Notes under the pieces: generated by a model
The model's input: the letters and a program-made list of their open reading frames with translations, nothing else
The model's database searches: none
What the model was told of the DNA's origin: nothing
Made by a program: the position numbers and the translations under genes
Shown here: positions 10,089 through 57,524 of the stretch, piece by piece
Layout: every line of letters starts with the position of its first letter
How positions within the stretch are numbered: position 1 is the stretch's first letter
Assembly (NCBI GenBank): GCA_013151555.1
Contig: JAADIA010000079.1
Coordinates: 1,699-65,698, forward strand
Source: Nitrospirota bacterium
GTDB lineage: Bacteria; NPL-UPA2; JAADIA01
DNA length: 64,000 nucleotides
Direction: 5' to 3'

Positions 10089-10517
10089 ATGTCTAAAGTC
10101 AAGGATTGCTTAAAAGAGTTGAAATTTGATGATAAGGGCCTGATTCCTGTTGTCATTCAGGAGGTAGAAACCAACGAGGTTCTCATGCTGGCTTATATGA
10201 ATGAAACCTCTCTTTCGGCTACGCTGGAAACGGGAAGGACGCATTTCTGGAGCCGGTCGAGGGGGAAGTTATGGAAAAAAGGAGAGGTTTCCGGTTGCGA
10301 ACAGATCGTTCACGAAATTTTTGTTGATTGCGATGAAGATAGTCTTCTAATCAAGGTCCATCAGAAGGGCGGAGCCTGTCATACCGGTTATAAATCCTGT
10401 TTCTATCGAAAGATTAATGTCAAGCAGGATATGATTGAGATCGTTAGCCGCAAGGTTTTTCATCCTCATGAGAAGTATGGCAAGAAGGAAAAGCAAGAAG
10501 AAAATTTGACAGGATGA
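10089..10517 (+). CDS. hisI: Phosphoribosyl-AMP cyclohydrolase
   Basis: ATG at 10089 preceded by GGAGGAG; GLIPVVIQ...LMLAYMN...[18 protein letters not shown]...[10 protein letters not shown] is canonical HisI. Stop codon lies inside an ACAGGAT repeat arm. Confidence 0.85.
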
Positions 10518-10528
10518 ACAGGATAGAC
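10506..10528. repeat. ACAGGAT-family repeat arm (ttgacaggatgaacaggatagac), single arm overlapping the hisI stop
   Basis: Same 9-mer units as the 12777, 20177 and 46589 loci. Confidence 0.6.
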
Positions 10529-10582
10529 CGGGCTGAATACTGAGCGCTGAATTCTGAATTATCAAAGAGAGGAGGAGATTCC

Positions 10583-11929
10583 ATGAATCCGCAAATTTTT
10601 CGGGAATATGACATTCGGGGGGTGGTTGATAAGGATTTGACTCCGAAAATAGTAGAAACTTTGGGAAAAGCTTTTGGGAGCTATATCCAGGATTTTCAGG
10701 GCAAAGAGATTGTCGTTGCCCGGGATAACCGTTTATCTTCGAAGCTGTACCGGGACGCTCTCATTTCCGGAATAGTTTCTACTGGATGTAGTGTCCTTGA
10801 CATTGGCGAGGTTCCCTCTCCGGTATTCTATTTTTCCTTGATTCATTATGAGAAAGATGGAGGAATGATGATTACTGCCAGCCATAATCCTCCGGAGTTC
10901 AATGGGTTCAAGATTAGTCGTGGCCATAGCAGTATTTATGGGGAGGAGATTCAGAAGTTAAGAAAAATAATCGAATCCGGGAAGTTCCGGGAAGGTAAAG
11001 GACAAATAAGCAGTAAAGATCCCCGGGCGGCTTATCTCAGTTGCCTTAAAGAGAGAGTAAATTTAAAACGAGAACTGAAGGTAGTTGTGGATGCCGGCAA
11101 TGGGACAACTTCCGATTTAGCCCCTTCCTTATTGGAAGAACTGGGTTGCCGGGTAATAAAACTTTACTGTGAGTCGGACGGGAGGTTTCCCAACCATCAT
11201 CCGGATCCGACTATCCCGGATAATTTAAAGGATTTAATTGCTACCGTGCAAAAAGAAAAAGCCGATCTGGGAATAGCTTACGATGGAGACGGGGATAGAA
11301 TTGGAGTAGTTGATGAAAAGGGCAAGATTATCTGGGGCGATAGGTTAATGATAATATTTGCCCGAAAAATCCTTAAAAAGCATCCGGGAGCCAAGGTCGT
11401 TTTTGAGGTCAAATGTTCTCAAAGTTTGATTGAAGAAATTGAGAAAGCCGGAGGTGTTCCTCTGATGTGGAAGACGGGACATTCCCTTATCGAAAGTAAG
11501 ATTCGGGAGGAAGGAGCTCTCCTGGCGGGAGAAATGAGCGGCCATATCTATTTTGCCGATAACTATTTTGGTTACGATGACGCTATCTTTGCTTCCTGCC
11601 GGTTAGTGGAGATTCTCTCCGGGACGGAGAAGAGATTATCTCAGCTTTTAGAAGGGGTCACCGAGTACCATTCTACTCCTGAAATAAGGATAGAGTGCCC
11701 GGATGAAAAGAAGTTTGAAGTGGTGGAGAAGGTCAAAAAATATTTCCGGGAAAAATATGAGATTATCGATATCGATGGGGTAAGAGTCCTCTTTGGAGAT
11801 GGATGGGGATTGGTTCGGGCCTCCAACACGCAGGCGGTTCTCGTTCTCAGGTTTGAAGCGCGAACGGAAAAGAGGATGGAGGAGATAAAGAGTCTGGTGA
11901 TGACCAAGTTAAAGGAAGTCATCGGATAA
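10583..11929 (+). CDS. Phosphomannomutase/phosphoglucomutase (alpha-D-phosphohexomutase)
   Basis: 448 aa; active-site TASHNPPEFNGFKI, metal loop DGDGDR, sugar loop GEMSGH. Confidence 0.8.
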   Translation: MNPQIFREYDIRGVVDKDLTPKIVETLGKAFGSYIQDFQGKEIVVARDNRLSSKLYRDALISGIVSTGCSVLDIGEVPSPVFYFSLIHYEKDGGMMITASHNPPEFNGFKISRGHSSIYGEEIQKLRKIIESGKFREGKGQISSKDPRAAYLSCLKERVNLKRELKVVVDAGNGTTSDLAPSLLEELGCRVIKLYCESDGRFPNHHPDPTIPDNLKDLIATVQKEKADLGIAYDGDGDRIGVVDEKGKIIWGDRLMIIFARKILKKHPGAKVVFEVKCSQSLIEEIEKAGGVPLMWKTGHSLIESKIREEGALLAGEMSGHIYFADNYFGYDDAIFASCRLVEILSGTEKRLSQLLEGVTEYHSTPEIRIECPDEKKFEVVEKVKKYFREKYEIIDIDGVRVLFGDGWGLVRASNTQAVLVLRFEARTEKRMEEIKSLVMTKLKEVIG

Positions 11930-12054
11930 GAAACGCTAAGTTAACAAGGTCTCCGGTTAATAACTCTCTTTTCTAACTAGCCTGGAGCACTTGGTCTTGC
12001 CTTTTTTTAAGGAAGCTGATATAGTTAACAATCCTGGGAGAAACAAAAAGAGAG

Positions 12055-12762
12055 ATGGAAGAGATAAGAGATAGACTAAAGCTGGTTAAAGAGAAAATTA
12101 ACCGGGCCGTGGAAAGTTCCAGGCGAAGCGCCGGGGAGATTGAACTGGTAGTAGTGACCAAGACGGTTGCGGTAGCTCGTATTCGAGAAGCAATCGAGGC
12201 CGGGGTGCGGAATATCGGAGAGAACCGGGTGCAGGAGGCCCTGGCCAAGCATGAGGAGCTTAGTTCTCGTCCTCCCGGAGCGGGTCTTCCCCGATGGCAT
12301 ATGATCGGGCACTTACAGCGGAATAAGGTGGAGAGAGCTTTGAGCATCTTTGACCTTATCCATTCAGTTGACTCCTTATCCTTAGCCGAGGAGATAGATA
12401 AACGGGCTGAGGCTCTGGGAAAAAGAGTGGATATCCTGGTGGAAGTGAATGTATCCGGGGAGGAATCGAAATTCGGCTTAGAGAGGAGTAAAGTAAACGA
12501 GTTTTTAGTGACAATTTCTAAGTTGAAGAATCTCAGAATACAGGGATTAATGACGATGACTCCTTTCACAAACGATCCGGAACAGTCGAGACCTTATTTT
12601 CGTAAGCTCAGGTGTCTTAGCGAGGAGATACAGTCCGGCCGGCTGAATAATATAGAGATGCGGTATCTATCTATGGGGATGAGCCAGGATTTTGAAGTGG
12701 CTATTGAGGAGGGAGCTAATATGGTGCGTATCGGTAGCGCCATCTTTGGTTCACGGTCTTAG
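12055..12762 (+). CDS. yggS: YggS-family pyridoxal phosphate homeostasis protein
   Basis: 235 aa; alanine-racemase-N-like fold signature VTKTV...GENRVQE typical of YggS/PLPBP. Confidence 0.75.
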   Translation: MEEIRDRLKLVKEKINRAVESSRRSAGEIELVVVTKTVAVARIREAIEAGVRNIGENRVQEALAKHEELSSRPPGAGLPRWHMIGHLQRNKVERALSIFDLIHSVDSLSLAEEIDKRAEALGKRVDILVEVNVSGEESKFGLERSKVNEFLVTISKLKNLRIQGLMTMTPFTNDPEQSRPYFRKLRCLSEEIQSGRLNNIEMRYLSMGMSQDFEVAIEEGANMVRIGSAIFGSRS

Positions 12763-12776
12763 AAGATGAGGAAAAT

Positions 12777-12912
12777 TTGACAGGATTAACAGGATAGACA
12801 GGATAAAATTATTACCTGAATAAGCAAATGAAACAAATTAAAATTAAATTATTACAGGTTTGTCTTTTAGTGGCTCTTTAAAAAATCTTGTTAATCCTGT
12901 TTATCCTGTCAA
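12777..12912. repeat. ACAGGAT-family inverted tandem-unit element (3 units - spacer - 3 inverted units)
   Basis: ttgacaggattaacaggatagacaggat at 12777-12804; atcttgttaatcctgtttatcctgtcaa at 12885-12912; spacer itself holds aattattacctg/aattattacagg. Confidence 0.7.
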
Positions 12913-12942
12913 AAGAAGTAAAGTAACTAAGTGAGGTATTTT

Positions 12943-13770
12943 TTGAATAAAAAGATTGGATTTATCGGAGGGGGTAATATGGGGCAAGCCCTGATAAAGG
13001 GAATCCTGAAAAGAGGAATAGCGAACCCCCGGGATATAATTGTCAGTGACCTTGACAGGAATAAATTACGAGTTGTAAGTTGTGAAATGCAGGTTGTGAT
13101 AGCTGAGGATAACCGGGAGGTTATTGAAAAGTCCGACATCATTATTCTTGCTGTTAAGCCAAAGGATATTGAAAGGGTATTGAAAGAGATTAGCGATTAT
13201 TTGCAAGGTCTATCTGCTTCCGGTTCTTCCCCTATGGTCCTATCCATTGCTGCCGGGATAACGACGAAGTATATTGAGGAACATCTGGGGGATGATGTCC
13301 CGGTAGTCAGGGTAATGCCTAATACTCCGGCCTTAATCGGAGCGGGGATAGCTGCCATCTCTCGAGGCCGGTTTGCTGGTGAAGAAGAGGAAAAAATAGC
13401 GGAAGAATTATTCCGGGGAGTTGGGGAAACAGTTAAAGTAAAAGAAGAACTGATGGATGCGGTTACCGGTCTCAGCGGTAGTGGTCCTGCTTATGTATTT
13501 GCCGTTATGGAAAGTTTGGTAGAAGCAGGGGTGAAAGAAGGGTTGCCTTACGGTTTGGCACAAAAACTCGTTATTCAGACTGTTCTGGGGGCAGTGAAGA
13601 TGGCCATGGAAACGGGAGAAAAACTTTCTACTTTAAGGGAAATGGTCACTTCTCCCGGGGGAACGACGGAAGCCGCCTTGGGTGTTTTTGAAGAAAGAAA
13701 CCTTAGAAATATTCTGGCTGAGGGGGTAAGTGCCGCTGTTAGAAGGTCAGAAGAAATGGGTAAAAGTTAG
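12943..13770 (+). CDS. proC: Pyrroline-5-carboxylate reductase
   Basis: Rossmann IGFIGGGNMGQAL; likely TTG start at 12943 after GAGG (the ORF track GTG at 12931 is also possible). Confidence 0.8.
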   Translation: MNKKIGFIGGGNMGQALIKGILKRGIANPRDIIVSDLDRNKLRVVSCEMQVVIAEDNREVIEKSDIIILAVKPKDIERVLKEISDYLQGLSASGSSPMVLSIAAGITTKYIEEHLGDDVPVVRVMPNTPALIGAGIAAISRGRFAGEEEEKIAEELFRGVGETVKVKEELMDAVTGLSGSGPAYVFAVMESLVEAGVKEGLPYGLAQKLVIQTVLGAVKMAMETGEKLSTLREMVTSPGGTTEAALGVFEERNLRNILAEGVSAAVRRSEEMGKS

Positions 13771-13831
13771 GTTCCCGGCTGATAGCGGTTCGGACGAGTT
13801 CTGCTTAAAGGGATAATAAAGGAGAAGAAAA

Positions 13832-15412: not shown

Positions 15413-15460
15413 TTGGATGAAGGGGCGAAGTGAATCAGATGCGAAGGGAGGTATGAAACG

Positions 15461-16282: not shown

Positions 16283-16310
16283 AGGTAAGGTAAAAAAATA
16301 CTATGAAAAC

Positions 16311-16401
16311 CACAGAGACACGGAAGAGCGGAAACACGGAAAAAAGAATTCAGAATGGGAAGAAGTAAAGAGTTGTAAATTAAATTTCCGTGTTTCCGTG
16401 G
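16311..16401. repeat. Inverted tandem-unit element (unit ACGGAAA) between pnp and ileS
   Basis: cacagagacacggaagagcggaaacacggaaaa at 16311-16343; tttccgtgtttccgtgg at 16385-16401. Confidence 0.6.
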
Positions 16402-16443
16402 TTAATTTTTGTAGTATCGTTGTAGAAGGGGAGAGAAATAAGA

Positions 16444-20139: not shown

Positions 20140-20176
20140 CCACAGAGGACGTAGAGAAACAAGACCTGAAACTATT

Positions 20177-20285
20177 CTGACAGGATTTACAGGATGAAAA
20201 CTCGATTGAGTCGACTCTGTTGACAGGATTAAAATTTAAGTATAGAAAAAACAAAAAATCTTGTTAATCCTGTTCATCCCGTCAA
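20177..20285. repeat. ACAGGAT-family inverted tandem-unit element with a central GAGTCGACTC palindrome
   Basis: ctgacaggatttacaggatg at 20177-20196; ttgacaggatt at 20220-20230; atcttgttaatcctgttcatcccgtcaa at 20258-20285. Confidence 0.7.
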
Positions 20286-20418
20286 AAATTTTGTAGGATT
20301 TTCTTCGCATCTTCATTCTTTTATATCTTCATGATTATCAGTTATCTTAAACTTCTGTGTTCATCATCAGTGTCTGATTAGTTTTTCCTTTCTCTGTAGT
20401 TGCCAAGGTGTTCTAATC

Positions 20419-24500: not shown

Positions 24501-24521
24501 GAGGCATAGGGATTAAGTGGT

Positions 24522-24648
24522 GAAATCCCAAACTAAAAATCCCAATACTACCAAATAAATCCCAATACCACCAATTTTTGGGGTTTGGTAATACTTGGAT
24601 TTTTGGTTTACGGCGCAAGACGTTTGGGTTTGGTAACTATTGGGATTT
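24522..24648. repeat. CCCAATAC/TTGGTA-family inverted tandem-unit element 3' of pyrC
   Basis: gaaatcccaaactaaaaatcccaatactaccaaataaatcccaataccaccaa at 24522-24574; inverted tttggtaatacttggatttttgg at 24584-24606 and gtttgggtttggtaactattgggattt at 24622-24648. Confidence 0.65.
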
Positions 24649-24659
24649 AGGATTTAACT

Positions 24660-25493
24660 ATGTGGCAGGGTAGAGTAAAAATTTCTGTTAATGAAGAGGT
24701 TGCTCCCGGGTACTTCAGGATGGTTTTAAATGCTCCTCAGGTAGCTGAAGATGCGGAAGCGGGACAATTTATTCATATTCGAGTCAATGATGAGTATGAT
24801 CCTTTACTGCGGCGGCCGCTTAGCATACATAGAATAATTAGTCGAAGGTTAAAGGTTAAAAGTTTAAAGTTGCCGGATATTGAAGTGCTTTATGAGGTCG
24901 TAGGGAAGGGGACGAAGATATTGGCGGGAAAGCGGCCGGGAGAAGATCTGGATATTCTGGGACCGCTGGGCAATGGTTTTAAACTCGGCTGTGTTTCCGG
25001 GACGGTTATCCTGATCGCCGGGGGAATGGGTGTCGCTCCTCTCCTGGCTCTGGCTGAGGAGATAAGGAGAGAGGAAAAGGTTAAGGATACCTACGTTATT
25101 ATTGGGGCGAGAACGAAGGCGCTGGTGTTATGCGAGGATGCTTTCCGGGATTTAGCGGCCAAGGAGGTGCAAGTGGCTACTGATGATGGAAGCAGAGGAT
25201 ACAAAGGATTAGCGACTGACCTTCTGCAAGAGTTGTTTTCAACTTTAAACCTTAAACTTTCAACCACAGTTTACGCCTGTGGTCCGGAAGGAATGCTTCG
25301 GGAGGTAGCTGCCCTTACGGTTGCCAAGGGGGTTCCCTGCCGGATGTCTTTGGAGAACCGAATGGGGTGTGGAGTAGGAGCATGTCTGGGGTGTGTTGTG
25401 AGAGTGAAAAGTTTGCAGTCGGGAGTTGAAAGTTACAAACGTGTATGTAAGGATGGACCTGTCTTTGAAGCCGGGGAGATAATCTGGGAGTGA
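24660..25493 (+). CDS. pyrK: Dihydroorotate dehydrogenase electron-transfer subunit (FAD/[2Fe-2S])
   Basis: LLRRPLSI, GPLGNGF, C-terminal Cys cluster CGVGACLGC. Contains an in-frame inverted pair of GGTTAAAG-family repeat arms (see repeats at 24844 and 25240). Confidence 0.85.
   Translation: MWQGRVKISVNEEVAPGYFRMVLNAPQVAEDAEAGQFIHIRVNDEYDPLLRRPLSIHRIISRRLKVKSLKLPDIEVLYEVVGKGTKILAGKRPGEDLDILGPLGNGFKLGCVSGTVILIAGGMGVAPLLALAEEIRREEKVKDTYVIIGARTKALVLCEDAFRDLAAKEVQVATDDGSRGYKGLATDLLQELFSTLNLKLSTTVYACGPEGMLREVAALTVAKGVPCRMSLENRMGCGVGACLGCVVRVKSLQSGVESYKRVCKDGPVFEAGEIIWE
24844..24872. repeat. GGTTGAAAGTTAAGG-family repeat arm inside pyrK coding sequence (encodes RRLKVKSLKL)
   Basis: gaaggttaaaggttaaaagtttaaagttg. 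Confidence 0.6.
25240..25265. repeat. Inverted GGTTGAAAGTTAAGG-family repeat arm inside pyrK coding sequence (encodes STLNLKLST)
   Basis: caactttaaaccttaaactttcaacc; its reverse complement ggttgaaagtttaaggtttaaagttg matches the arm at 24844. Confidence 0.6.
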
Positions 25494-26424: not shown

Positions 26425-26562
26425 AAGGCACAAAGTGACAAAGGCACATAGGCACAAAGGCACAGAGTAACAAAGGCACAAAGGAAAAACAAGAACCAAC
26501 ACTTTTGTACTTTTTTTGGTTTTTAAACTTAGTGCCTCTGTGCCTTAGTGCCTCTGTGCCTG
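26425..26562. repeat. AAGGCACA-family inverted tandem-unit element 3' of pyrD
   Basis: Five forward units (aaggcacaaag, gacaaaggcacat, aggcacaaagg, cacagag, acaaaggcacaaagg) at 26425-26484; inverted agtgcctctgtgccttagtgcctctgtgcctg at 26531-26562. Confidence 0.65.
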
Positions 26563-26576
26563 TTTAAGGTAAAAAA

Positions 26577-29130: not shown

Positions 29131-29748
29131 TTGAGCTCTCAAGTAGAGGAGCCCTTGTTTATGCTCAAAGGCAAGGAAATAATTATCGGAGTAACGGGGA
29201 GTATTGCGGCTTATAAATCGGCGGAAATCGTTAGGAGGTTGAAGAATGAAGGAGCCGAAGTGACCGTAATTATGACCGAAAAAGCTACCAAATTTATCAC
29301 TCCTCTCACTTTGGAAACTCTTTCTCGAAACCCGGTTTATTGTTCTCTGTTTTCTGAGGAGCGAGAATGGGACCCTGCTCACATTTCTCTGGCCGGGAGA
29401 GCGGATCTGATTTTGATAGCGCCGGCTACTGCCAATCTCATTGGCAAATTAGCTGCCGGGATAGCTGATGACCTTCTGACAACAACGGTGATGACGGTTA
29501 AGACAATGGTTATTCTTGCTCCGGCTATGAATACCCGGATGTATGAAAATCCTATTCTTCAGGAGAATCTGAACAGACTAAAAAGTTTCGGGTATGAAAT
29601 TATCGAACCCGAATACGGTTTTCTTGCCTGCGGCGAAAAAGGGAAAGGGCGGCTGGCTGATGTTGATACCATTCTTAAAATGGTGGAAGACAATTTTAAC
29701 AGAAGACAGAAGACAGAGAATGGAGAACAGAAAACAGAGAGAATTTGA
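29131..29748 (+). CDS. coaC: Phosphopantothenoylcysteine decarboxylase (flavoprotein)
   Basis: GVTGSIAAYKSAEIVRRL FMN-binding N-terminus; C-terminal tail RRQKTENGEQKTERI is encoded by a GACAGA repeat arm. Confidence 0.8.
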   Translation: MSSQVEEPLFMLKGKEIIIGVTGSIAAYKSAEIVRRLKNEGAEVTVIMTEKATKFITPLTLETLSRNPVYCSLFSEEREWDPAHISLAGRADLILIAPATANLIGKLAAGIADDLLTTTVMTVKTMVILAPAMNTRMYENPILQENLNRLKSFGYEIIEPEYGFLACGEKGKGRLADVDTILKMVEDNFNRRQKTENGEQKTERI

Positions 29749-29785
29749 CGCCTGTCTTCTGGTTTCTGGCAACTGTCCTCTCTGG
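29701..29785. repeat. GACAGA-family inverted tandem-unit element at the coaC/coaB junction
   Basis: agaagacagaagacagagaatggagaacagaaaacagagagaat at 29701-29743; inverted cctgtcttctggtttctggcaactgtcctctctgg at 29751-29785. Confidence 0.7.
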
Positions 29786-29798
29786 TTAGGAGATTGTC

Positions 29799-36664: not shown

Positions 36665-36753
36665 GACAGAAAACAGAGGACAGATATCAGAAGACAGATG
36701 GATAAAAACAGATGTTTAATATAAGGTTGTTTCTGTTATCTGTCTTCTGTTTA
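36665..36753. repeat. GACAGA-family inverted tandem-unit element between tRNA-Val and thrS
   Basis: gacagaaaacagaggacagatatcagaagacagatggataaaaacagatg at 36665-36714; inverted gtttctgttatctgtcttctgtttag at 36728-36753. Confidence 0.65.
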
Positions 36754-36763
36754 GGGAAAAAGC

Positions 36764-38530
36764 ATGATGAATTCTAAAGATAAGCATAAGGCTGATTCAA
36801 AAGATAACCTGGAAACTCTGAGGCATAGTGCCGCTCATATCCTGGCCCAGGCAGTGAAGGAGCTTTATCCGGAAACCAAGTTGGGTATTGGCCCTGCCAT
36901 TGCCGATGGTTTCTATTATGATTTTGAGAGAAAAACTCCTTTTACTCTTGAAGATTTGGCAAAGATTGAAGAGAGGATGCAGAGAATTGTGAAGGCTGCC
37001 CTTCCTTTTCTGAAAAGTGTTCTTTCTAAGCAAGATGCTCTGGAAATATTTTCTGAATTGGAGGAGCCATATAAGTTAGAACTTCTGGAAGATCTGGAGA
37101 ATGATGAAGTAACTATCTACCGGCAGGGAAATTTTACTGACCTCTGTAGGGGGCCGCATCTGGCGAATACCGGAGAGCTGAAATCTTTCAAGCTCCTTAG
37201 CATAGCCGGAGCCTACTGGCGGGGTAGCGAAAAGAATCCTATGCTCCAGCGAATATACGGGACGGCCTTTCCCGGGGAAGTGGAGTTAGCAGAATATCTG
37301 CAGAATCTTGAAGAAGCTAAGAAGAGGGACCATCGCAGGTTAGGGAAAGAATTGGATCTCTTTAGCCTGGAGGAGGATGTTGGTCCCGGCTTGGTCCTCT
37401 GGCACCCTCGCGGGGCGATGTTGCGGAAGGTCATCGAGGACTTCTGGCGGGATGAGCATTTGAAACGGGGGTACCAACTTGTCTATACTCCTCATATCGC
37501 CGGAGAGAATTTGTGGAAGGTAAGTGGACATCTTGACTATTTCAGGGAAATGATGTATCCTTCTATGAGAATGGACGAGCGGAACTATCTTCTCAAACCG
37601 ATGAATTGTCCCTTTCATATAAGAATTTATAAGCAGAAAGTTCGTAGTTATCGAGACCTCCCCATTCGTTATGCTGAGTTAGGAACAGTCTACCGCTATG
37701 AACGTTCCGGGGTCCTGCATGGGTTGTTGAGGGTGCGAGGTTTTACTCAAGATGATGCCCATATTTTTTGTACTCCGGAGCAATTGTCCAAAGAAATTCT
37801 GAGCATTATCGATTTGATCCAGTTCATGTTGGAGGCTTTTGGTTATAAGGAGTTTCAGGTCGAGTTGAGTGTTCGCCATCCGGATAGAAGCGGTGATTAT
37901 CTGGGAGATGATGAAGGCTGGGCTCGGGCGGAGGCAGCTTTAGTTGAATCTCTGGACAAGAGGAATCTCTCCTATACGGTAGGGGAAGGAGAAGCAACCT
38001 TCTATGGTCCTAAGATCGATATCAAGCTGGTTGATGCTCTGGGAAGAGGTTGGCAAGGTCCAACAATCCAGGTAGATTTCAACCTTCCGGGACGTCTTAA
38101 TATTACTTATGTGGGAGATGATGGAAAGAAACATCCGGTGATGATGCTCCATCGAACCGTACTGGGAACGATGGAACGGTTTGTCGGAGGTTTGATAGAG
38201 CATTATGTCGGAGCATTTCCTTCCTGGCTGGCTCCTCTTCAGATCAGGGTGGTGACGATCAACCAGGGGCAGGAAGCTTATGCAAAGAAGGTTCTGCAGG
38301 AACTGCAGGAAAAAGGATTGCGGGCTGATCTGGATGCGGGAAAGGAAACGATTAGTTATAAGATTGGGAAGGCTGAACGGGAAAAAATTCCTTATATTTT
38401 AGTAGCGGGAGATAGGGAAGTAGAAGCGGGCACTGTTTCGGTAAGAAAGAGAAAGGATCGTCATCAAAAAGTAATGAAGGTTGAGGAGTTTATTGACAGG
38501 ATTCAGGAAGAAATAAAAAACCGTGAATAG
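36764..38530 (+). CDS. thrS: Threonyl-tRNA synthetase (lacking the N-terminal TGS domain)
   Basis: 588 aa; begins at the editing-domain motif RHSAAHILAQA; class II core and anticodon-binding domain present. Confidence 0.9.
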   Translation: MMNSKDKHKADSKDNLETLRHSAAHILAQAVKELYPETKLGIGPAIADGFYYDFERKTPFTLEDLAKIEERMQRIVKAALPFLKSVLSKQDALEIFSELEEPYKLELLEDLENDEVTIYRQGNFTDLCRGPHLANTGELKSFKLLSIAGAYWRGSEKNPMLQRIYGTAFPGEVELAEYLQNLEEAKKRDHRRLGKELDLFSLEEDVGPGLVLWHPRGAMLRKVIEDFWRDEHLKRGYQLVYTPHIAGENLWKVSGHLDYFREMMYPSMRMDERNYLLKPMNCPFHIRIYKQKVRSYRDLPIRYAELGTVYRYERSGVLHGLLRVRGFTQDDAHIFCTPEQLSKEILSIIDLIQFMLEAFGYKEFQVELSVRHPDRSGDYLGDDEGWARAEAALVESLDKRNLSYTVGEGEATFYGPKIDIKLVDALGRGWQGPTIQVDFNLPGRLNITYVGDDGKKHPVMMLHRTVLGTMERFVGGLIEHYVGAFPSWLAPLQIRVVTINQGQEAYAKKVLQELQEKGLRADLDAGKETISYKIGKAEREKIPYILVAGDREVEAGTVSVRKRKDRHQKVMKVEEFIDRIQEEIKNRE

Positions 38531-38588
38531 GATTAAGAATTAAGAATTAAGAAGAAAAACTTAATACTTACAACTTACAACTTAATTC
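38531..38588. repeat. Inverted tandem-unit element (unit GAATTAAG) immediately 3' of thrS
   Basis: gattaagaattaagaattaagaag then cttaatacttacaacttacaacttaattc. Confidence 0.55.
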
Positions 38589-38631
38589 TGTTTTTTAGAG
38601 GAGGTGACGACTAATAGCTAAAGAAATTAGG

Positions 38632-39201: not shown

Positions 39202-39399
39202 GTGCCTAAGTTGAAAACTAAGCGAGGAGCAGCCAAAAGGTTCAAGGTGACCAAATCGGGAAGGATTGGAAGAAAAAAAGCTTGTGCCAGTCATATTCTG
39301 ACGAAGAAGTCCTCTAAACGTAAACGGGGACTAAGGCAGGCAGACACTGTTAGCAAAGCGGATAGAAAAGCAATTAAACTTCTGCTACCTTATGCTTGA
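39202..39399 (+). CDS. rpmI: 50S ribosomal protein L35
   Basis: GTG 39202 with AAGGAG 7 nt upstream gives [22 protein letters not shown]. Confidence 0.85.
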
Positions 39400-39406
39400 A
39401 ACAGAT

Positions 39407-39577
39407 GGTTGAAAGTTAAGGTTGTAAAGTCTAAAGTAAAAAAACTTTTGGAAGAAGATATTTGTAAGTTTGAGATATAAGGTTTTTAAGTATAAGCCCC
39501 GGGTTGTCTAAGATTTAGGCAAGGTTTTTATTGTTTTCTTGCTTTTAACTTTCGACCTTCAATTTTAAACTATCAAC
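39407..39577. repeat. GGTTGAAAGTTAAGG-family inverted element between rpmI and rplT
   Basis: ggttgaaagttaaggttgtaaagtctaaagt at 39407-39437; inverted cttttaactttcgaccttcaattttaaactatcaac at 39542-39577. Confidence 0.6.
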
Positions 39578-44713: not shown

Positions 44714-44738
44714 GTTTGCTACCTCCTTCGGAAGTTAA

Positions 44739-44824
44739 GACTATAGACTATAGACCATAGACTAAACGAGGGGAAAAGGGATGGTGAAAAGTCTAAAGTC
44801 TGATGTCTATGGTCTATTGTCTGA
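44739..44824. repeat. Inverted tandem-unit element (unit CTATAGA) between pheS and pheT
   Basis: gactatagactatagaccatagactaaa at 44739-44766; inverted agtctaaagtctgatgtctatggtctattgtctga at 44790-44824. Confidence 0.6.
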
Positions 44825-44849
44825 ATTGAGTTCTTGAAAAGAGGTAAGA

Positions 44850-46508
44850 ATGCCAACTATTGAAATAAGAAAAACGGATTTTGATAAGTTCCTGAAGCCC
44901 ATAATAGAAGAACAGGGAAGAGGACGGGAAGAGACTCTTTCTCGCATTAAGGGAGAGATAAAAGGCGAGGATAACGATTGCTATAAGATAGAAATAGCCG
45001 ATACCAACAGGCCGGATCTCTTCACTGTTGAAGGTATTGCCAGAGAACTTCTGGGGATTTTCAAAGAGGAAAAGTTTAAGGATGATTTTCTGAATGAAAG
45101 TCCGAAATATAAGATAGAGGTCCTGGAATCCGTGCGGGAGGTAAGACCTTTTGTAGGAGCTCTGGTTGTCAGGAACTTAACTGTTGATGAAGATACTCTG
45201 CATTCTTTAATAAGCATCCAGGAAAAACTGGGTGAGACCCTGGGGAAAAGGAGAAAGAGGGTTGCCATTGGTGTTTATGAAGCCGGTTCCATCGAATTCC
45301 CGGTACGATACGGAGCTTTTGATCCTCAATCTTATAAGTTTGTTCCCCTGGAGTTCTCCGAAGAGATGACTTTGGATGAGGTTTTGAGGAAACATCCTAA
45401 AGGTATTGAATATGGGCATTTGTTGAAAGGTTGCCAAGGTTATCCTCTTCTCCTCGATGCTAACCGGAGAGTTCTTTCCCTCCCTCCCATCGTCAATAGC
45501 CGGGAAATGGGAGAGGTAAGGCCGGGAGCGAACCATCTCTTCGTGGAAGCAACAGGGACAGACCAGAAGGCGGTTATTCTGGCCTTAAATATTATCTCTT
45601 CCGCTCTCTCTCTCCGGGGAGGGACCATAGAAAGATGTGAGACGGTTTATCCCTACGCGACTCCCCTGGGAGAAAATCAGGTGACTCCCAGGCAAATGAA
45701 CAAGGCGTTGAGGGTAGATATGGAGGAGCTGAAACAGCTACTGGGTATCGATATTAGTCGGCAAGAGGCAGCTGATTGTCTAAGGCGATTAGGATATGAA
45801 ATCCAGGGGCAAGGAGAGAAATTCCAGGCCCTCGCCCCCTATTACCGTAGCGATGGTATGCATGAACACGATATAATAGAAGATATAGCTATAGTGAAAG
45901 GTTATGAGAACTTCTCTCCTCTACCTTTAAGCGATTTCACTATAGGAGGGTTATCCAGGGAACAGGAGATAGTGGATAAAGTAAGGGAGATTCTCGTCGG
46001 GATGGGATTTCAGGAGATAATATCTAACGCCTTGGTGAATCGGAGGGAACTCTCTCAGCGGATGAGATGTGAGACCGAGGCCATCGAAGTAGATAACGTG
46101 ATGACTGAGACCTACTCTGTATTGAGAAGTTGGCTTATTCCCTGCCTGCTCAAAGTGGAGAGGGAAAGTTCTCAGGTGGAATATCCTCATAAGGTCTTTG
46201 AAGTGGGTGAGGTGGTTGTCAAGGAAAATGGGCCCAGGGAAGAGATAAGACTGGCCGTTCTCATCTCGAGCGGAGAATTCGGTTTCACCGATATCCACCG
46301 GATATTGGAAAGCCTGATGGAGGAATTATCCTATCCTTATCATCTGAAAGAAGCTTGTCATAGTTCATTTATAGAAGGCCGTTTCGGTGAAATAGAGAGT
46401 GGACATAAGTCTGTGGGAATCATTGGCGAAGTACATCCGGAGGTCTTATCTAACTGGGCTGTCAAAATGCCTGTTTCCGCATTTGAGCTTAGGATTTACC
46501 CCTATTAA
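44850..46508 (+). CDS. pheT: Phenylalanyl-tRNA synthetase beta subunit, archaeal/eukaryotic type (short form)
   Basis: 552 aa, against about 800 for bacterial PheT; B3/B4 and B5 regions recognisable; no tRNA-binding N-terminal OB domain. Confidence 0.75.
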   Translation: MPTIEIRKTDFDKFLKPIIEEQGRGREETLSRIKGEIKGEDNDCYKIEIADTNRPDLFTVEGIARELLGIFKEEKFKDDFLNESPKYKIEVLESVREVRPFVGALVVRNLTVDEDTLHSLISIQEKLGETLGKRRKRVAIGVYEAGSIEFPVRYGAFDPQSYKFVPLEFSEEMTLDEVLRKHPKGIEYGHLLKGCQGYPLLLDANRRVLSLPPIVNSREMGEVRPGANHLFVEATGTDQKAVILALNIISSALSLRGGTIERCETVYPYATPLGENQVTPRQMNKALRVDMEELKQLLGIDISRQEAADCLRRLGYEIQGQGEKFQALAPYYRSDGMHEHDIIEDIAIVKGYENFSPLPLSDFTIGGLSREQEIVDKVREILVGMGFQEIISNALVNRRELSQRMRCETEAIEVDNVMTETYSVLRSWLIPCLLKVERESSQVEYPHKVFEVGEVVVKENGPREEIRLAVLISSGEFGFTDIHRILESLMEELSYPYHLKEACHSSFIEGRFGEIESGHKSVGIIGEVHPEVLSNWAVKMPVSAFELRIYPY

Positions 46509-46588
46509 AAGGCGGGATTGCCCAGATTAGGACAAAGATTTCGCTCTGGTGATTGGCTATTAGTTTAATGCTAAGGAAAATCAAAAAC

Positions 46589-46739
46589 GGACAGGATTAA
46601 CAGGATGTACAGGATAATTTTCTTAAAGAATTTTAGTTGGGGAAACTTTACAAAACTTTTTGAATTTTGTAAAATCAGCTTTTATCCTTTGATTTAATTA
46701 AAAGAATAAAAATCCGGTAAATCCAGTAAATCCTGTCAA
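46589..46739. repeat. ACAGGAT-family inverted tandem-unit element 3' of pheT
   Basis: ggacaggattaacaggatgtacaggat at 46589-46615; inverted atccggtaaatccagtaaatcctgtcaa at 46712-46739; spacer contains tttacaaaa/ttttgtaaa palindrome. Confidence 0.7.
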
Positions 46740-49227: not shown

Positions 49228-49350
49228 ATTGTAAATTGAAGATTGGAAATTGGAAATTTTAAAATGGAAGAGAAGAAATGAGATTCAATCTTTTTTGATT
49301 TATTTCAATAAGTTTAAAATTTACAATTCTCAATTTACAATTCGAGCGAA
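49228..49350. repeat. Inverted tandem-unit element (unit ATTGGAA / TTGTAAAT) upstream of rpsP
   Basis: attgtaaattgaagattggaaattggaaatttt at 49228-49260; inverted aaaatttacaattctcaatttacaattc at 49323-49350. Confidence 0.6.
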
Positions 49351-49665: not shown

Positions 49666-49764
49666 AAGACAGAGAACAGATGACAGAAATAATCTTATAT
49701 TGAACGGCTGTTTTTATACGTCTGTCTCTTGATTTCTGACATCTGATGTCTGTTTCCTCTGTGG
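49664..49764. repeat. GACAGA-family inverted tandem-unit element 3' of rpsP
   Basis: agaagacagagaacagatgacagaaat at 49664-49690; inverted cgtctgtctcttgatttctgacatctgatgtctgtttcctctgtgg at 49719-49764. Confidence 0.7.
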
Positions 49765-49782
49765 TTAAGGAAATTTCTTGCT

Positions 49783-50968: not shown

Positions 50969-50978
50969 ACTCTCCCGG

Positions 50979-51614: not shown

Positions 51615-51744
51615 ATACAAAAAAGCACAACCTTTAGCTAATTACCGCTGAGAACGCCGAGGTCGCCGAGATTACTTAATTTTAAAGATGATTTTCATTT
51701 TTTTATCTGCGCTCTCGGCGTTCTCAGCGGTGAAAATTAAAGGG

Positions 51745-52122: not shown

Positions 52123-52195
52123 GCATGGTAACCAATTTAGATTTTTGTATACTTGATAAATAGAATCTTTACTATGAAAAGGAGGCTTCTATCTA

Positions 52196-52957: not shown

Positions 52958-53100
52958 AATATTTGATTTACAGCTCTCTTTTTTATCTTGATTGGACAGG
53001 GAATCCCTTTTTGAATTATGAACGTAAAAGAGTTGAGGATTAACGTCTTAAGAAAGACCAGGGAAATATGGAATAACTGCAAATACTGGAGAACTTATCA

Positions 53101-54633
53101 ATGTTATCTCAAACCTATTCGGCCTCCCTGCTGGGTCTGGAAGCTTATCCGGTTGAGATAGAGGTGGATGTAGCCGCCGGTCTTCCTGCCGTAATCGTAG
53201 TGGGGTTGCCTGATGCGACAGTAAGAGAAAGTAAAGACCGGATAAAATCCGCTATAAAGAATAGCCGTTTTAAGTATCCAACCAAAAGAATTACTGTAAA
53301 TCTTGCTCCTGCCGATGTGAAAAAGGAAGGTCCTTCTTTTGATTTACCTATTGCCCTGGGACTGTTAGCTGCTACGGGTCAACTTTCTCCTGAGCGTCTG
53401 AAAGATTACCTTATCCTGGGAGAACTGGCTCTGGATGGTCGGGTTCGCCCTATCAAGGGAGCCCTTCCCATCGCCCTCAGCCTGAGGAAAGAAACCCGGA
53501 GAGGAATAATTCTTCCCCGGGAGAACGCTGCCGAGGCCGCGGTCATTGAAGATATTGAGATTTATGGGGTAGGGAGCCTTGCGGAGGCGGTTAAATTCAT
53601 AAACGGAGAGGCGCGAATTACTCCCCATAAAGTAAATTTAGATGATATTTTCAGTGACTTATTATCTGATTGTGAAGTCGACTTTGCCGAGGTTAAAGGT
53701 CAATTTTCCGTAAAAAGAGCTCTGGAGATCGCTGCTGCCGGTTCTCATAATGTTTTGATGATCGGTCCTCCCGGGGCGGGAAAGACCATGTTGGCCAGAA
53801 GGCTTCCCACGATTATTCCGAATATGAGTCTGGAGGAGGCCTTGGAGACTACTCAAATTCATAGCGTGGCAGGACTTCTTCCCTCGAAACGGGCTTTGGT
53901 CACCCGGCGCCCTTTTCGCTCGCCTCATCATACCTCTTCCGATATCGCTCTCGTGGGAGGGGGGACAATTCCTAAACCCGGAGAGGTAAGCTTGGCTCAT
54001 AATGGAGTACTTTTTTTAGATGAATTGCCGGAATTTCACCGGCAAGCTCTCGAGGTTCTCCGGCAGCCTCTTGAAGATGGATCCGTTACCATATCCCGGG
54101 TGAACAGAACATTAACCTTTCCTTCCCGGATATTGCTTATCTCTACTATGAATCCCTGCCCCTGTGGTCATCTTGGTGATGAAGTAGAATGTCATTGCAC
54201 CTCTTATCAAATTCAGCGTTATCGTTCCCGTATCTCCGGTCCTCTTCTGGACAGGATAGATATTCATATTGAAACTCCTGCTTTGAAATATAAGGAGCTT
54301 GCCGGTGAGCAACTTGGTGAGTCTTCGGAAAAGGTGAGGAAGAGAGTGACGGGTGCTCGGGATATCCAGGAAAAAAGGTTTAAGGGGGAGAAAATATACG
54401 GTAACGCTTACATGAATCAGAAACAGATGAGGAGATATTGCCGTCTGGACGATGAGGGAAAAGAGCTTCTCAAAATGGCCATGAGTGAATTGGGAATATC
54501 CGCCCGGGCTTACGATAAAATACTCAAAGTAGCCAGAACGATTGCCGATTTAGCAGCCTCGGAGGATATCCAAGCTGAGCACCTCTCCGAAGCTATCCAG
54601 TACAGGAGCTTGGATAGGAATTTGTTAGCTTAA
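53101..54633 (+). CDS. YifB/ComM-family Mg-chelatase-like AAA+ ATPase
   Basis: 510 aa; N-terminal Lon-like domain, Walker [10 protein letters not shown]-terminal Zn-ribbon-like [14 protein letters not shown] typical of YifB. Confidence 0.85.
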
Positions 54634-54676
54634 CTCCCTGGTGGTGTAGGATTAGTAATTAAGAAGCTGGAGAAAC

Positions 54677-55435
54677 TTAACCCGAAACTCCTTCTTCTAA
54701 GAGAAGCGAGAAGGGGATTTCCAAACCATGGGCTTCCAACAACTTTTTATCCCTCATAATTTCATCAACCTGACCTTCAGCCACTACCGCACCTCCATCG
54801 AAGAGGAAAATCTTTTGACAAACTTCCCTGACTAACTCCAGGTCATGACTGGCGACTATTCGGGTTTGTCTTAAGCTCTTAAGTAAATCTATCAAATGTT
54901 TTCTGGTCCGAGGGTCGAGGCTGCTTGAGGGCTCATCAAGGACGAGAATATCGGGTTCCATGGATAAAACCGTAGCTATGGATATCCTTTTCTTTTCTCC
55001 CAGACTTAAATGGTGAGAGCATCTTTCCTCATAACCTTCCATACTTACCTCTTTAAGAGCATCCCTTACCTTTTCTCTAATCTCTATCTTGGTATAGCCG
55101 GCATTCAGAGGCCCAAAGGCAGTATCGTCAAAGACCGTAGGCATAAAGAGCTGGTCATCAGGGTCCTGGAAGACTATTCCTATTTTCTTTCTGATTTCCT
55201 TCAAGCTTTTCTGTTCAATCTTCATCCCCAGTACTTCTACAGCTTCCTTCTTATCTTCCAAAACCCCATTCAAGTGGAGAAGGAGCGTGGTCTTCCCTGC
55301 TCCATTGGGCCCAATGATTCCTACAGATTCGCCCTCAGAGATGCTCAAATTCACATTTTGAAGAGCTACCCTGCCATCAGGGTAGGCGTAAGAAAGGTCT
55401 TTGATATTTATTATCTTCCTTTCCGAGCTTTTCAT
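54677..55435 (-). CDS. cbiO: ECF/cobalt transporter ATP-binding subunit (CbiO-like)
   Basis: Walker A GPNGAGKTT, ABC signature LSLGEKKR, Walker B ILVLDEP. Confidence 0.75.
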   Translation of the reverse strand: MKSSERKIINIKDLSYAYPDGRVALQNVNLSISEGESVGIIGPNGAGKTTLLLHLNGVLEDKKEAVEVLGMKIEQKSLKEIRKKIGIVFQDPDDQLFMPTVFDDTAFGPLNAGYTKIEIREKVRDALKEVSMEGYEERCSHHLSLGEKKRISIATVLSMEPDILVLDEPSSSLDPRTRKHLIDLLKSLRQTRIVASHDLELVREVCQKIFLFDGGAVVAEGQVDEIMRDKKLLEAHGLEIPFSLLLEEGVSG

Positions 55436-55436
55436 A

Positions 55437-56231
55437 TTATCCTCCTCCGAATCTTATCAGTCCGAGCAAAGCAATTACTATAAAGGAGTAACCTATATCT
55501 CTTTTCCTCAGATGAAATTGGCCAAGAGTTCTTGCTTCTCCGTCAAAACCACGGGAAACCATGGCGGTATAGACACGTTCTCCCCGTTCGTAACTCCTCA
55601 GGAAAAGCATTCCCACTATATTAGCCAATATCTTAATATGGAAAAGTCTGCTTCCTCCCACTGTCCGGGAATCTTTAGCCCGTTTCATTCTCATGAGTTC
55701 ATCTACCAGAACAAAGATGTATCGATACATAAAAGAAATAATCATGGTGATTATCTGAGGAAATTTTAAAGATTCCAGGGCCTTGAGGAGATGGGAAAAT
55801 TTAGTGGTCGTGGAAAGAAGGATGAGGCAGAGGATGGAAAGGTAAGACTTTATAAAAACGTTCCAGAAAACAGTGAGTCCGTCATAGGTCACGGTAAGTT
55901 GAAAAGTCCCGAAAGAGTAACCTCCGGCGATTTCCCCTTTCTTCAGGAAAGGAATAAAAATAGCAATCATGAGAACAAAAGGGATAATTACCAGTGACCT
56001 TTTGAAGATAGATCCTACCGGAACCTGGGAAAATAAAATCAAGATGAAGATGAGAAGGGCATAGAAACTAAAAGAAACGAAGTGGGTGGGTGGGGTAAAA
56101 ATTATGAATAGAATGAAGAGGGTAAGAGTAATGCTCTTTATCCGGGGATCAACCCGGTGGATGGGGCTTTGCAGATGGCTGTATTTGTCTATAAATGAAT
56201 GTTTCATAATTAATAAAAGGTTCAGAAGCAA
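55437..56231 (-). CDS. cbiQ: ECF/cobalt transporter transmembrane T component (CbiQ-like)
   Basis: 264-aa polytopic membrane protein immediately upstream of cbiO in the operon. Confidence 0.65.
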   Translation of the reverse strand: MLLNLLLIMKHSFIDKYSHLQSPIHRVDPRIKSITLTLFILFIIFTPPTHFVSFSFYALLIFILILFSQVPVGSIFKRSLVIIPFVLMIAIFIPFLKKGEIAGGYSFGTFQLTVTYDGLTVFWNVFIKSYLSILCLILLSTTTKFSHLLKALESLKFPQIITMIISFMYRYIFVLVDELMRMKRAKDSRTVGGSRLFHIKILANIVGMLFLRSYERGERVYTAMVSRGFDGEARTLGQFHLRKRDIGYSFIVIALLGLIRFGGG

Positions 56232-56264
56232 TTTGTCTCATCGCTTCCTCGCTTGTTTCCTTCC

Positions 56265-56549
56265 TCATTTCTTTTTAATTAACGCTGCTATCCCATAGCT
56301 GATTCCAAAGACGATTAATGTTCCTGCCATGCCGGCGAAAGAAGTAGCCAACTTTTCGTTCTTCAATCCCGGCCAGGAATAATCCGGTATGGGAGAGGGA
56401 ATAATTGGCTTGACCTCTCCCTTTTCCAGGAAGCCTTTATCCTCCGCCACTCTTTCCAGGCCATCGGGAAGCCGGGAGGCAAAGGGAGAAAGAATCAGAG
56501 CTAATAAAAGAGAAGCCAATAAACCAAAGAGCAAATGTTTCTTTTTCAT
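56265..56549 (-). CDS. PDGLE-domain small membrane protein (CbiN-like accessory component)
   Basis: Signal/TM segment then PDGLE motif (ASRLPDGLERVAEDKGF), C-terminal TM. Confidence 0.6.
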   Translation of the reverse strand: MKKKHLLFGLLASLLLALILSPFASRLPDGLERVAEDKGFLEKGEVKPIIPSPIPDYSWPGLKNEKLATSFAGMAGTLIVFGISYGIAALIKKK

Positions 56550-56552
56550 CCT

Positions 56553-57212
56553 CTATTCCTCCTCTTGCCCTGCCTCAGGCAGGGGTGGTTGGTAGATGAG
56601 GTCTGGCCGGACTTTAAGGACGAAACCTATGATTGAGCAAGTGATTATCGCTTCTCCCAAGCCCAGAAGCATGTGTACTCCCGCCATGGCGGGAAGAGCA
56701 ACTCTGAGTGGGGAAGTGCCGGAGATAGCCAGTTCTACAGCTACGCCGGAGGCTGCCAGGACTTCTGAGGCCCAGGCAGCTACAGCTACGCCGGCGATGA
56801 TTCCTCTGTTTCCGCCAATGACTTTTCTCAAACCGAGATAAATTAAATATCCGCCCATAGTTCCCACGATGGACATGTTGAGGATGTTGGCTCCCAGGGC
56901 AGTAAGACCACCGTCCTGAAAGACAACGCATTGGACGGTGAGGACAGTGGTGATGACAATGGCCCCGGCAAAGGGTCCCAGGAGAACGGCAGCTAAGACT
57001 CCTCCTATGAGATGGCCGGAAGTTCCTCCAGCTATGGGAAAGTTAAGCATCTGGGCGGCAAAAATAAAGGCGGACGTTACTCCCATCAGGGGAACCATCT
57101 TCTCCTTCAAGATTCGGGCTACTCTTCTCAGGCAATAACTCATTCCCCCAATGGAAAGCAGCCAGGCGGGAACCCAGGTACTCGGTGATAAAAACCCATC
57201 CGGTATATGCAT
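56553..57212 (-). CDS. cbiM: Cobalt/nickel ECF transporter substrate-capture subunit CbiM
   Basis: N-terminal MHIPDGFLS signature; 219 aa polytopic. Confidence 0.8.
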   Translation of the reverse strand: MHIPDGFLSPSTWVPAWLLSIGGMSYCLRRVARILKEKMVPLMGVTSAFIFAAQMLNFPIAGGTSGHLIGGVLAAVLLGPFAGAIVITTVLTVQCVVFQDGGLTALGANILNMSIVGTMGGYLIYLGLRKVIGGNRGIIAGVAVAAWASEVLAASGVAVELAISGTSPLRVALPAMAGVHMLLGLGEAIITCSIIGFVLKVRPDLIYQPPLPEAGQEEE

Positions 57213-57524
57213 CTTTTATTCTCCTTTCATTTACTCAGAAACTACTAACCTGATATCTTCATCCCCAAAGAATTTACCTCCTCACCTGTCAGATTAACAA
57301 AGCGTTCAGCTTTCATGCTATGTTTATCAGATTCGTGCTACTTCAAGAGAAAAAAATATCGCTTACATTATACTCTTTCCTATTATATACCAGCTCTCTC
57401 TGGCGATACTCCGAAGCGAACTATCCGCGACATGAACATTCTCCTGTGTTACGATTTTAAGAATAATAACACGACAGTTAAATCCTGTCAAGTTTTTTTG
57501 AAATACAAATAGGAATTTGTTAGC

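Follow-up and report, generated by a model that had tools for sequence, protein, structure and literature searches.

Intergenic ACAGGAT inverted repeats in an NPL-UPA2 bacterium are the gene-less form of the bracket around GxxExxY (PF13366) genes

The 64,000-nucleotide stretch of DNA analysed here (the window; positions 1,699 to 65,698 of contig JAADIA010000079.1, assembly GCA_013151555.1, from a Nitrospirota bacterium) carries intergenic elements built from tandem copies of the heptamer ACAGGAT, set in arms that face each other across a spacer. Four such loci, E1 to E4, lie in the gaps hisI|pgm, yggS|proC, lspA|rluD and pheT|zapA, between co-directional housekeeping genes that are unrelated to one another; elements also lie within the pyr and rpsP operons of the window. 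The left arm of E2 (12777..12804, + strand) consists of TTG and three perfect units (at 12780, 12789 and 12798), followed by an AT-rich 80-nt spacer (12805..12884) unlike those of E3 and E4 and by a right arm (12885..12912, - strand) that reads ATCTTGT TA ATCCTGT TT ATCCTGT CAA. E3 has a left arm of CTG plus two perfect units (20177..20195, +) and a right arm reading ATCTTGT TA ATCCTGT TC ATCCCGT CAA (20258..20285, -), with a solo TTGACAGGAT unit in its spacer (20220..20229, +), possibly all that is left of a second left arm. In E4 the left arm (46588..46615, +) is CGG with three perfect units (46591, 46600 and 46609), and the right arm (46712..46739, -), 96 nt past the left, is ATCCGGT AA ATCCAGT AA ATCCTGT CAA. 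These three loci are convergent pairs of the form TTG(ACAGGATnn)3, spacer, (nnATCCTGT)3CAA, and E1 is a decayed pair. Its left arm (10506..10533, +) is TTG followed by ACAGGAT GA ACAGGAT AG ACCGGGC, with the third unit degenerate, and overlaps the TGA stop of hisI (open reading frame (ORF) 10062-10517); a possible decayed right arm with a period of about 7 nt (10540..10576, +; CTGAGCG CTGAATT CTGAATTATCAAAG) is a low-confidence call. Outer arms of the CACAGAGGA/CGTAGAGAA type (20140-20165 and about 20385-20400) appear to enclose E3, which suggests nested elements, and comparable nesting, with ACAGGGAT-type pairs inside ACAGGAT pairs, is seen at two loci elsewhere (L302 and L313).

The heptamer occurs 23 times on the two strands of the window, against an expectation of 7.07 +/- 2.69, and 0 of 100 shuffles reach that count. 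Tandem ACAGGATnnACAGGAT 16-mers, with up to 3 mismatches allowed, number 21 (5.9 expected), and a repeat finder recovers the inverted pairs independently. The original prediction, made from the window alone, was of a dispersed multi-copy family rather than chance palindromes, and these counts bear it out. It had named five intergenic spots, which hold 16 of the 23 copies (the remaining 7 are at the chance level of 7.1). Four of the five carry arms of the family, but the fifth is a single TTGACAGGATT unit that is probably no family member; this 'aatcctgtcaa' lies at 57481..57491 (-), about 10 nt from the 57470-57481 first given. The minus strand at 57463-57491, upstream of cbiM, has TTGACA, a 17-nt gap and TATTAT with a TG extension (11 of 12 matches), and the site overlaps a small terminator-like hairpin and T-run after a secretin gene, a combination that probably marks an ordinary promoter/terminator region. 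The repeated 9-mers said to be common to the arms are real, but the full string TTGACAGGAT-TAACAGGAT-nnACAGGAT is matched by the arm at 12777 only; the other arms begin CTGAC or CGGAC, or hold degenerate units.

As RNA, E2 and E3 fold far better than their shuffles (z = -6.5 for E2, z = -3.7 to -4.4 for E3). The predicted folds place the GGA motifs of the elements within the stem, with loops of 60-96 nt and a stem base of A and U. At Rfam gathering thresholds the known RNA families in the window are three tRNAs alone, with no rRNA and no match of the CsrB type.

The closest relatives of the window's IleS (72-81% identity) belong to candidate division NPL-UPA2, and their contigs (L121-L125; L numbers denote individual loci) retain much of the gene order. 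Tandem ACAGGAT is absent from the roughly 53 kb of these contigs. In one of them, L121, yggS and proC abut (YggS is 66% and ProC 62% identical to the window proteins), whereas the window has a 168-nt gap made up of 14 nt, the 137-nt element E2 and 17 nt. E2 has therefore been either gained in this lineage or lost in the relatives, two histories that are inseparable at such divergence.

A pattern scan for ACAGGATnnACAGGATnnACAGGAT in one genome per species (596 Gb, about 0.3 chance matches expected) found the triple 9-mer in at least 120 loci from Bacteria and Archaea, with G+C contents of 30-71%. The units are thus conserved beyond the window, and the family spans both prokaryotic domains rather than being specific to a lineage. 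Among the matches listed, to which the following figures on carriers, orientation, arms and spacers apply, the bacterial carriers are Chloroflexota, Verrucomicrobiota, Planctomycetota, Acidobacteriota, Pseudomonadota, Bacteroidota, Gemmatimonadota and Nitrospirota, and the archaeal ones Methanoperedens and Methanosarcinales. Pairs are convergent in 75 cases and divergent in 2, and therefore the purine-rich arm leads on either strand. Each arm has an A-rich and then T-rich outer flank, w, G, and three ACAGGAT units with free 2-nt linkers, so that the termini are TTTwG at the left and CwAAA at the right (the mirror arm ends C-w-AAAA). Spacers run from 0 to 390 nt (median 37) and are unrelated in sequence between loci; the arms do co-occur in inverted pairs, but not at the fixed spacing for which the original prediction had proposed a search. 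The base before G-ACAGGAT is T in 40% of arms, A in 35% and G in 20%, and TTGACA is accordingly not a conserved feature. The preference of the elements for convergent, tandem or divergent gaps is near background. Being palindromic, the elements have no definable strand bias relative to the replication origin, which the original prediction had proposed to check. E2, E3 and E4, with two or three units per arm, fit the arm consensus derived from the 75 pairs and that from the cassettes described below.

Some matches to the triple 9-mer are of another kind. Those in L020 (Neobacillus, with GLT repeats) and L017 are coding repeats unrelated to the family, and the viral contigs have, for the most part, long arrays on a single strand that code for collagen-like GXY repeats such as Gly-Leu-Thr (L207, L218, L256, L258, L284 and other viral loci, like L020), many of them in giant-virus bins. 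Such arrays are a source of false positives for any census that uses the motif only. With 17 hairpin pairs in viral contigs and no GxxExxY relatives there, viruses were rejected as candidate vectors for the cassettes.

All-against-all clustering of ORFs from the at least 120 loci yields a single recurrent arm-adjacent family, a small one located between the arms, GxxExxY. A complete gene of this family (TIGR04256, E 1e-37 to 1e-43; PF13366) is bracketed by arms in L004, L084, L113 and L012, and a fifth, distant copy, in L013 and far from the motif match there, has degenerate ATCCTGT arms; the GxxExxY genes in motif-selected loci are thus arm-bracketed in 5 of 5 cases among the matches listed. 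As a control for ascertainment, 80 metagenome loci were collected by protein alignment alone, with no use of the motif. The commonest flanking heptamer is ACAGGAT in 39 of these, ACAGAAT, in arms of unchanged architecture, in 29, ACATAAT-like in 3 and CACGGAT in 1, with none recognised in 8. Of the 73 loci with sufficient flanking sequence, 33 have ACAGGAT within 150 nt upstream and ATCCTGT within 170 nt downstream. The arms adjoin the start codon and extend as far as the stop codon, and several of the proteins end in an arm-encoded ...NPVNPV*. The last ACAGGAT unit stands 5-8 nt before the ATG and contains a Shine-Dalgarno-like AGGA; cargo genes that point the same way as the gene upstream outnumber those that do not by 44:11. 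Gene-less pairs adjoin the gene-bearing pair in many protein-selected loci, and in L128, L133, L141 and L193 the GxxExxY gene lies between two complete gene-less pairs.

The ACAGGAT pairs of the window, with spacers of 62-96 nt, are the gene-less form of this bracket, to which they are identical in sequence and architecture. The original prediction had suggested looking for a cognate DNA-binding protein or transposase; GxxExxY genes are indeed found inside such arms elsewhere, but a search with hidden Markov models finds none among the ORFs of the window, nor is there one in the relatives' contigs or a gene for the REP-associated tyrosine transposase (RAYT; REP, repetitive extragenic palindrome) in the window.

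The GxxExxY protein, of about 125 aa, is a minimal putative PD-(D/E)XK nuclease with its active site intact. No solved structure was found for it by sequence, and PADLOC gives no match that would make it part of a defence system. PF13366 is of unknown function, with multiple transfers between Bacteria and Archaea in a survey of the superfamily (PMC3424549). No account of the bracket was found in the searchable literature, which leaves out subscription papers and database comments, so that a prior description is possible; the lone sequence match in the literature is a PCR primer for B. fragilis that happens to fall in such an arm.

The type of heptamer tracks the clade of the protein that it brackets (ACAGGAT, ACAGAAT, CACGGAT or CACAGAGGA). 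It is the same as in the nearest protein neighbour for 67 of 72 loci, compared to 32 under the null, and 0 of 500 shuffles reach 67. In 28 cassettes of the ACAGGAT type, unit positions are 94-99% conserved (a figure somewhat inflated by detection with up to 2 mismatches) and linkers about 50%, although the genes enclosed have diverged to 63% protein identity and 38% identity at third codon positions, which is saturation. Because the units are far more conserved than synonymous sites, the heptamer sequence itself, beyond its ability to pair, must be strongly constrained. This pattern of fixed units and free 2-nt linkers fits a reiterated site with sequence-specific recognition, in line with the protein-binding site suggested in the original prediction. 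In cultured isolates, distant PF13366 genes are bracketed in the same way by other units, namely CACAGAGGA in Bacteroides finegoldii (L336), CACGCGAAG in Sphingomonas (L337, between fabD and fabG) and CACGGATTCG in Treponema; units of this kind match further hairpins of the window. In related metagenomic lineages, cassettes recur at the junction gyrB|gyrA, with units of either ACAGGAT or ACAGAAT type (L004, L186, L187, L192, L198, L199 and L201), and at cdsA|dxr (L154, L156, L180-L184, L188, L189 and L194), and fabD|fabG (L337) is a site of the same sort. Recurrence at the same operon-internal junctions suggests long-term vertical residence at fixed host sites.

The same design is used for a second cargo. 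In L027 (2314-2800) an AAGTCYA 7-mer bracket surrounds a four-helix-bundle protein (TIGR02436 / PF05635, E 1e-34). Eight further loci (L326-L333) have a four-helix-bundle gene between the genes for the membrane-fusion protein (MFP) and the pump of resistance-nodulation-division (RND) systems, whereas the neighbours in L027 differ; their brackets are of AGTTCAA or AGTCCAA 7-mers with TTTTAG...CTAAAA termini. Between relatives, all units of both arms have changed together. Each cassette protein may bind the heptamer array of its own cassette; binding of nucleic acids is known for bAvd-like proteins. The four-helix-bundle / 23S rRNA IVS (intervening sequence) protein family PF05635 is itself of unknown function (PMC11270868). 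Since this cargo is no nuclease, a model in which a nuclease cuts its own arms cannot explain everything.

In L006 (788-2554) a RelE/ParE-like toxin and a small antitoxin-like ORF lie between two ACAGGAT arms separated by 1.7 kb, and the arms of L117 (222-246 / 1453-1477) surround a 422-aa zinc-ribbon membrane protein; these genes may be other cargo, or each locus may be two independent half-elements. Within the window, pyrK (ORF 24660-25493; dihydroorotate dehydrogenase electron-transfer subunit) has tandem AAGGTTA/AAAGTTT 7-mers at 24840-24872 and, 365 nt apart, an inverted copy at 25236-25265. Both are in frame (...SRRLKVKSLKL... and ...FSTLNLKLST...) and resemble the AAGTTCA arms around the four-helix-bundle genes of L326 and L327; they could be due to chance, or to an insertion tolerated in protein loops.

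We favour, with somewhat better than even confidence, the interpretation that the window pairs are non-autonomous derivatives of the GxxExxY cassette, similar to REPINs (REP doublets forming hairpins), and are recognised sequence-specifically on DNA. The full cassette would be tTTTwG-(ACAGGATnn)x3 ... (nnATCCTGT)x3-CwAAAa around the protein of about 125 aa, and each heptamer would be recognised sequence-specifically, most probably by the cassette protein acting on DNA. By analogy with REPINs and their RAYT, recognition of the gene-less pairs would take place in trans; these pairs may have been left behind in the intergenic gaps of the NPL-UPA2 genome, or have spread and been maintained there in trans, being tolerated because they are intergenic and, if transcribed, giving long imperfect hairpins. 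Mobility and a binding partner are what we infer for these pairs. Mismatches between the arms of gene-bearing cassettes are concentrated in the linkers, and 39 of them are G.U-compatible on the sense strand against 35 A.C; the lack of a G.U excess, along with the conservation of the heptamer, favours recognition of the units on DNA over a stem in the sense RNA.

Several observations weigh against this interpretation. Over 168 pairs, the direct-repeat signal expected of target-site duplications is at z ~0 for lengths of 4-10 nt, which together with the unrelated spacers leaves classical cut-and-paste or copy-and-paste of the whole element unsupported. In the same 168 pairs inverted complementarity runs about 10 nt past the units in copy-specific sequence (z 6-9), as would be expected if pairing is selected for, or if the insertions went into palindromes already present. 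The four-helix-bundle cargo has the same bracket without a nuclease, so that the arms may serve a purpose independent of cargo, and the concordance of unit and clade could be simple co-inheritance. No function has been tested for PF13366 (PMC3424549). With no GxxExxY gene in the window or the relatives' contigs, a trans-acting partner in the NPL-UPA2 genome is hypothetical.

The main rival is a role at the level of RNA. Transcribed arms would pair to form a long imperfect stem, likened to those of rRNA intervening sequences, that is cut by RNase III or that stabilises or insulates the flanking mRNAs; the host would keep gene-less copies for this reason, and in full cassettes the stem would also control translation of the cargo gene. 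We keep this explanation, though it is rather unlikely, on account of the copy-specific complementarity past the units, the 44:11 co-orientation of the cargo, the Shine-Dalgarno distance of the last unit and the operon-internal sites (pyr and rpsP in the window; gyrB|gyrA, cdsA|dxr, MFP|RND and fabD|fabG elsewhere). The strong folds of E2 and E3 and the second cargo, named for a 23S rRNA IVS protein, speak for it as well. A stem needs only pairing, however, which calls neither for heptamers conserved at 94-99% across proteins 63% identical nor for the same sequence in every unit of both arms. The linkers, moreover, are not complementary between arms, G.U pairs are not in excess over A.C on the sense strand, and the ACAGAAT variant lacks the AGGA.

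Another explanation makes the gene-less pairs primary, as landing pads into whose spacers GxxExxY, acting like a homing endonuclease gene, copies itself. Genes are found within a single pair as well as with a complete gene-less pair on either side, the latter at the four loci named above, empty pairs outnumber filled ones by about 15:1 in motif-selected loci (among the matches listed), and the active site of the PD-(D/E)XK fold is intact in the protein. The multiplication of the empty pairs would nevertheless be left unexplained, no filled and empty allele pair was observed, and the four-helix-bundle cargo has no nuclease; we regard the explanation as improbable. Less probable again is an operator or nucleoid-protein array, in which heptamers spaced at 9 bp bind a host protein unrelated to GxxExxY (compare iterons, or the heptad arrays of ribbon-helix-helix proteins) and regulate the neighbours. 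Conserved units with free linkers are what such an array should show, in keeping with the binding-site suggestion already mentioned, but the neighbours are unrelated housekeeping genes, GxxExxY is the only recurrent arm-adjacent gene family, Bacteria and Archaea have the heptamer in common, and the type of unit follows the gene enclosed.

Ordinary expression signals are very unlikely. The resemblance of TTGACA, present at 5 arms, to a -35 hexamer had been pointed out in the original prediction, the outer flanks, with A-rich sequence 5' and T-rich sequence 3', recall an intrinsic (bidirectional) terminator, and the site at 57491 (-) scores 11/12 as a promoter. The TTGACA resemblance turns out to be incidental: only about 40% of arms across phyla have it, no paired arm has a -10 hexamer 16-18 nt downstream, and two such arms would drive transcription convergently into each other. 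No pair was called terminator-like; the stem base is AU-rich and the loops measure 60-96 nt, where an intrinsic terminator has a short G+C-rich stem, a loop of 3-8 nt and a U-tract. Least credible of all are a REP or REPIN mobilised by a RAYT transposase, which the intergenic inverted doublets with spacer bring to mind, and a GGA-repeat RNA that titrates CsrA, to which the likeness of ACAGGAU to CAGGAUG, the CsrB repeat, would point. The first idea of a REP-like element fails in the strict sense, since the arms are neither self-palindromic nor provided with a GTAG and flank a gene of PF13366 instead of a Y1 transposase. The CsrA sponge is rejected on three grounds: archaea, which have no CsrA, also carry the family; pairing in the stem buries the GGA motifs; and ACAGAAT, the sister family, contains no GGA.

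Among known systems, the one described here resembles REPIN-RAYT or a MITE in the way it works. In REPIN-RAYT systems, REP doublets form hairpins and are associated with a tyrosine transposase (PMC3116915, PMC3337134). Like these, the cassettes form short inverted doublets, intergenic and separated by a spacer, of which a genome has many copies; the same repeats also flank a dedicated gene, which non-autonomous copies greatly outnumber, and the gene-bearing copy is stably inherited at one host locus. The cassette gene, however, is PD-(D/E)XK (PF13366) where RAYT is an HUH/Y1 transposase, and the arm is three tandem 7-mers with 2-nt linkers where REP is an imperfect palindrome of 20-25 nt with GTAG; the spacer varies in length and sequence, the heptamer is common to phyla and to both domains, and a second, non-nuclease cargo shares the design. 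Membership in REP proper was rejected: the inverted doublets are there, but not the palindromic unit of 20-40 nt with 5' GT(A)G or the RAYT. Miniature inverted-repeat transposable elements (MITEs) are likewise small (60-170 bp for the ACAGGAT elements), gene-less and bounded by terminal inverted repeats, with longer relatives that carry an ORF. The ACAGGAT elements differ in having neither a target-site duplication nor a conserved interior, and their associated ORF is no known transposase, so that they were not assigned to MITEs on the strength of the terminal repeats.

The Leptospira IVS is a 23S rRNA intervening sequence, a type of element that sits in a helix of the 23S rRNA gene and is excised by RNase III. 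Bacterial 23S rRNA IVSs can carry a PF05635 ORF (PMC11270868), and like the cassettes they have a small ORF of that family (our second cargo), stem-forming inverted repeats with a long stem at the insertion, and ORF-less versions. The window copies, however, lie between protein-coding genes, with no rRNA in the window, and we found no report of tandem-heptamer arms or PF13366 cargo in IVSs in the searchable literature. The short tandemly repeated repetitive (STRR) heptamers of heterocystous cyanobacteria are also tandem and intergenic, with several unit families per genome; they are described as arrays specific to lineages, and we know of no inverted-pair architecture, 2-nt linkers or associated gene described for them. 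Integron cassettes with attC sites have in common with ours a promoterless small ORF, imperfect inverted repeats, a cassette-specific repeat and structure-forming DNA, but attC is a single 3' site with R''/R' cores, recombined by IntI in an array beside attI, whereas here two arms bracket the ORF in dispersed copies with no integrase; the RYYYAAC/GTTRRRY cores are absent from the arms and the neighbours are housekeeping genes, which rejects attC. PD-(D/E)XK homing endonuclease genes (e.g. I-Ssp6803I), free-standing or intron-borne, are similarly small selfish nuclease genes of the same fold superfamily and prone to horizontal transfer. Homing enzymes have one long asymmetric site in a conserved gene, and to our knowledge no heptamer bracket or dispersed empty copies.

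The elements are best placed with a known kind, that of dispersed non-autonomous hairpin doublets with a cognate gene, and there is a substantial chance that they are a new class. We put forward tentatively, as a proposal somewhat short of even odds, that there is an undescribed class of cassettes in which small ORFs sit in inverted tandem 7-9-mer arrays with TTTwG/CwAAA termini and GxxExxY / PF13366 or four-helix-bundle / PF05635 cargo, that the heptamer co-evolves with the protein and gene-less derivatives are intergenic in many phyla, and that this would be an analogue of REPIN-RAYT built on a PD-(D/E)XK nuclease and the first concrete nucleic-acid target for two orphan families. Both families are very large (at least 8000 scored candidates in each search), horizontal transfer has carried them across Bacteria and Archaea, and the clade-specific brackets provide a testable hypothesis on what their proteins recognise. 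The cassettes would account for a class of conspicuous intergenic hairpins in many environmental phyla, hairpins that can mislead gene callers, terminator prediction and assembly. Should gene-less copies indeed be maintained or mobilised in trans, the system would be a second intragenomic replicator of the REPIN-RAYT kind, on another nuclease superfamily.

The window holds about 17 intergenic hairpins with arms of tandem 7-9-mers, in nearly half of its longer intergenic gaps. Some 13 of these are further inverted pairs, whose tandem 7-9-mers are of other sequences and whose architecture is that of the ACAGGAT pairs (2431-2530, 3806-4054, 16308-16403, 24520-24650, 26426-26563, 29696-29790, 36671-36752, 38527-38590, 39396-39568, 44733-44830, 49228-49342, 49666-49760 and 51644-51731). 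Their units are CACAGATTA, ACGCAGAT, CACAGAGA/CACGGAA, AAATCCCAA, AGGCACAnA, ACAGAAG, ACAGAGG/ACAGATAT, AAGAATT, TAGACTA, ATTGGAA and CGCTGAGAA. Several share an ACAG/CACA core with the arms of other GxxExxY clades, for example with CACAGAGGA of B. finegoldii (L336).

Two other features of the window were noted. GC skew is strongly positive (+0.1 to +0.3) and nearly all genes are on the + strand up to about 54.6 kb; past about 54 kb, to 64 kb, skew drops to about 0, with the genes now on the - strand, a change that may mark a replication-terminus-like or rearrangement boundary. PheT (44850-46508) is of the short form, 552 aa with a PhetRS_B1 domain, which we take to be the archaeal/spirochaete type and unusual for most bacteria.

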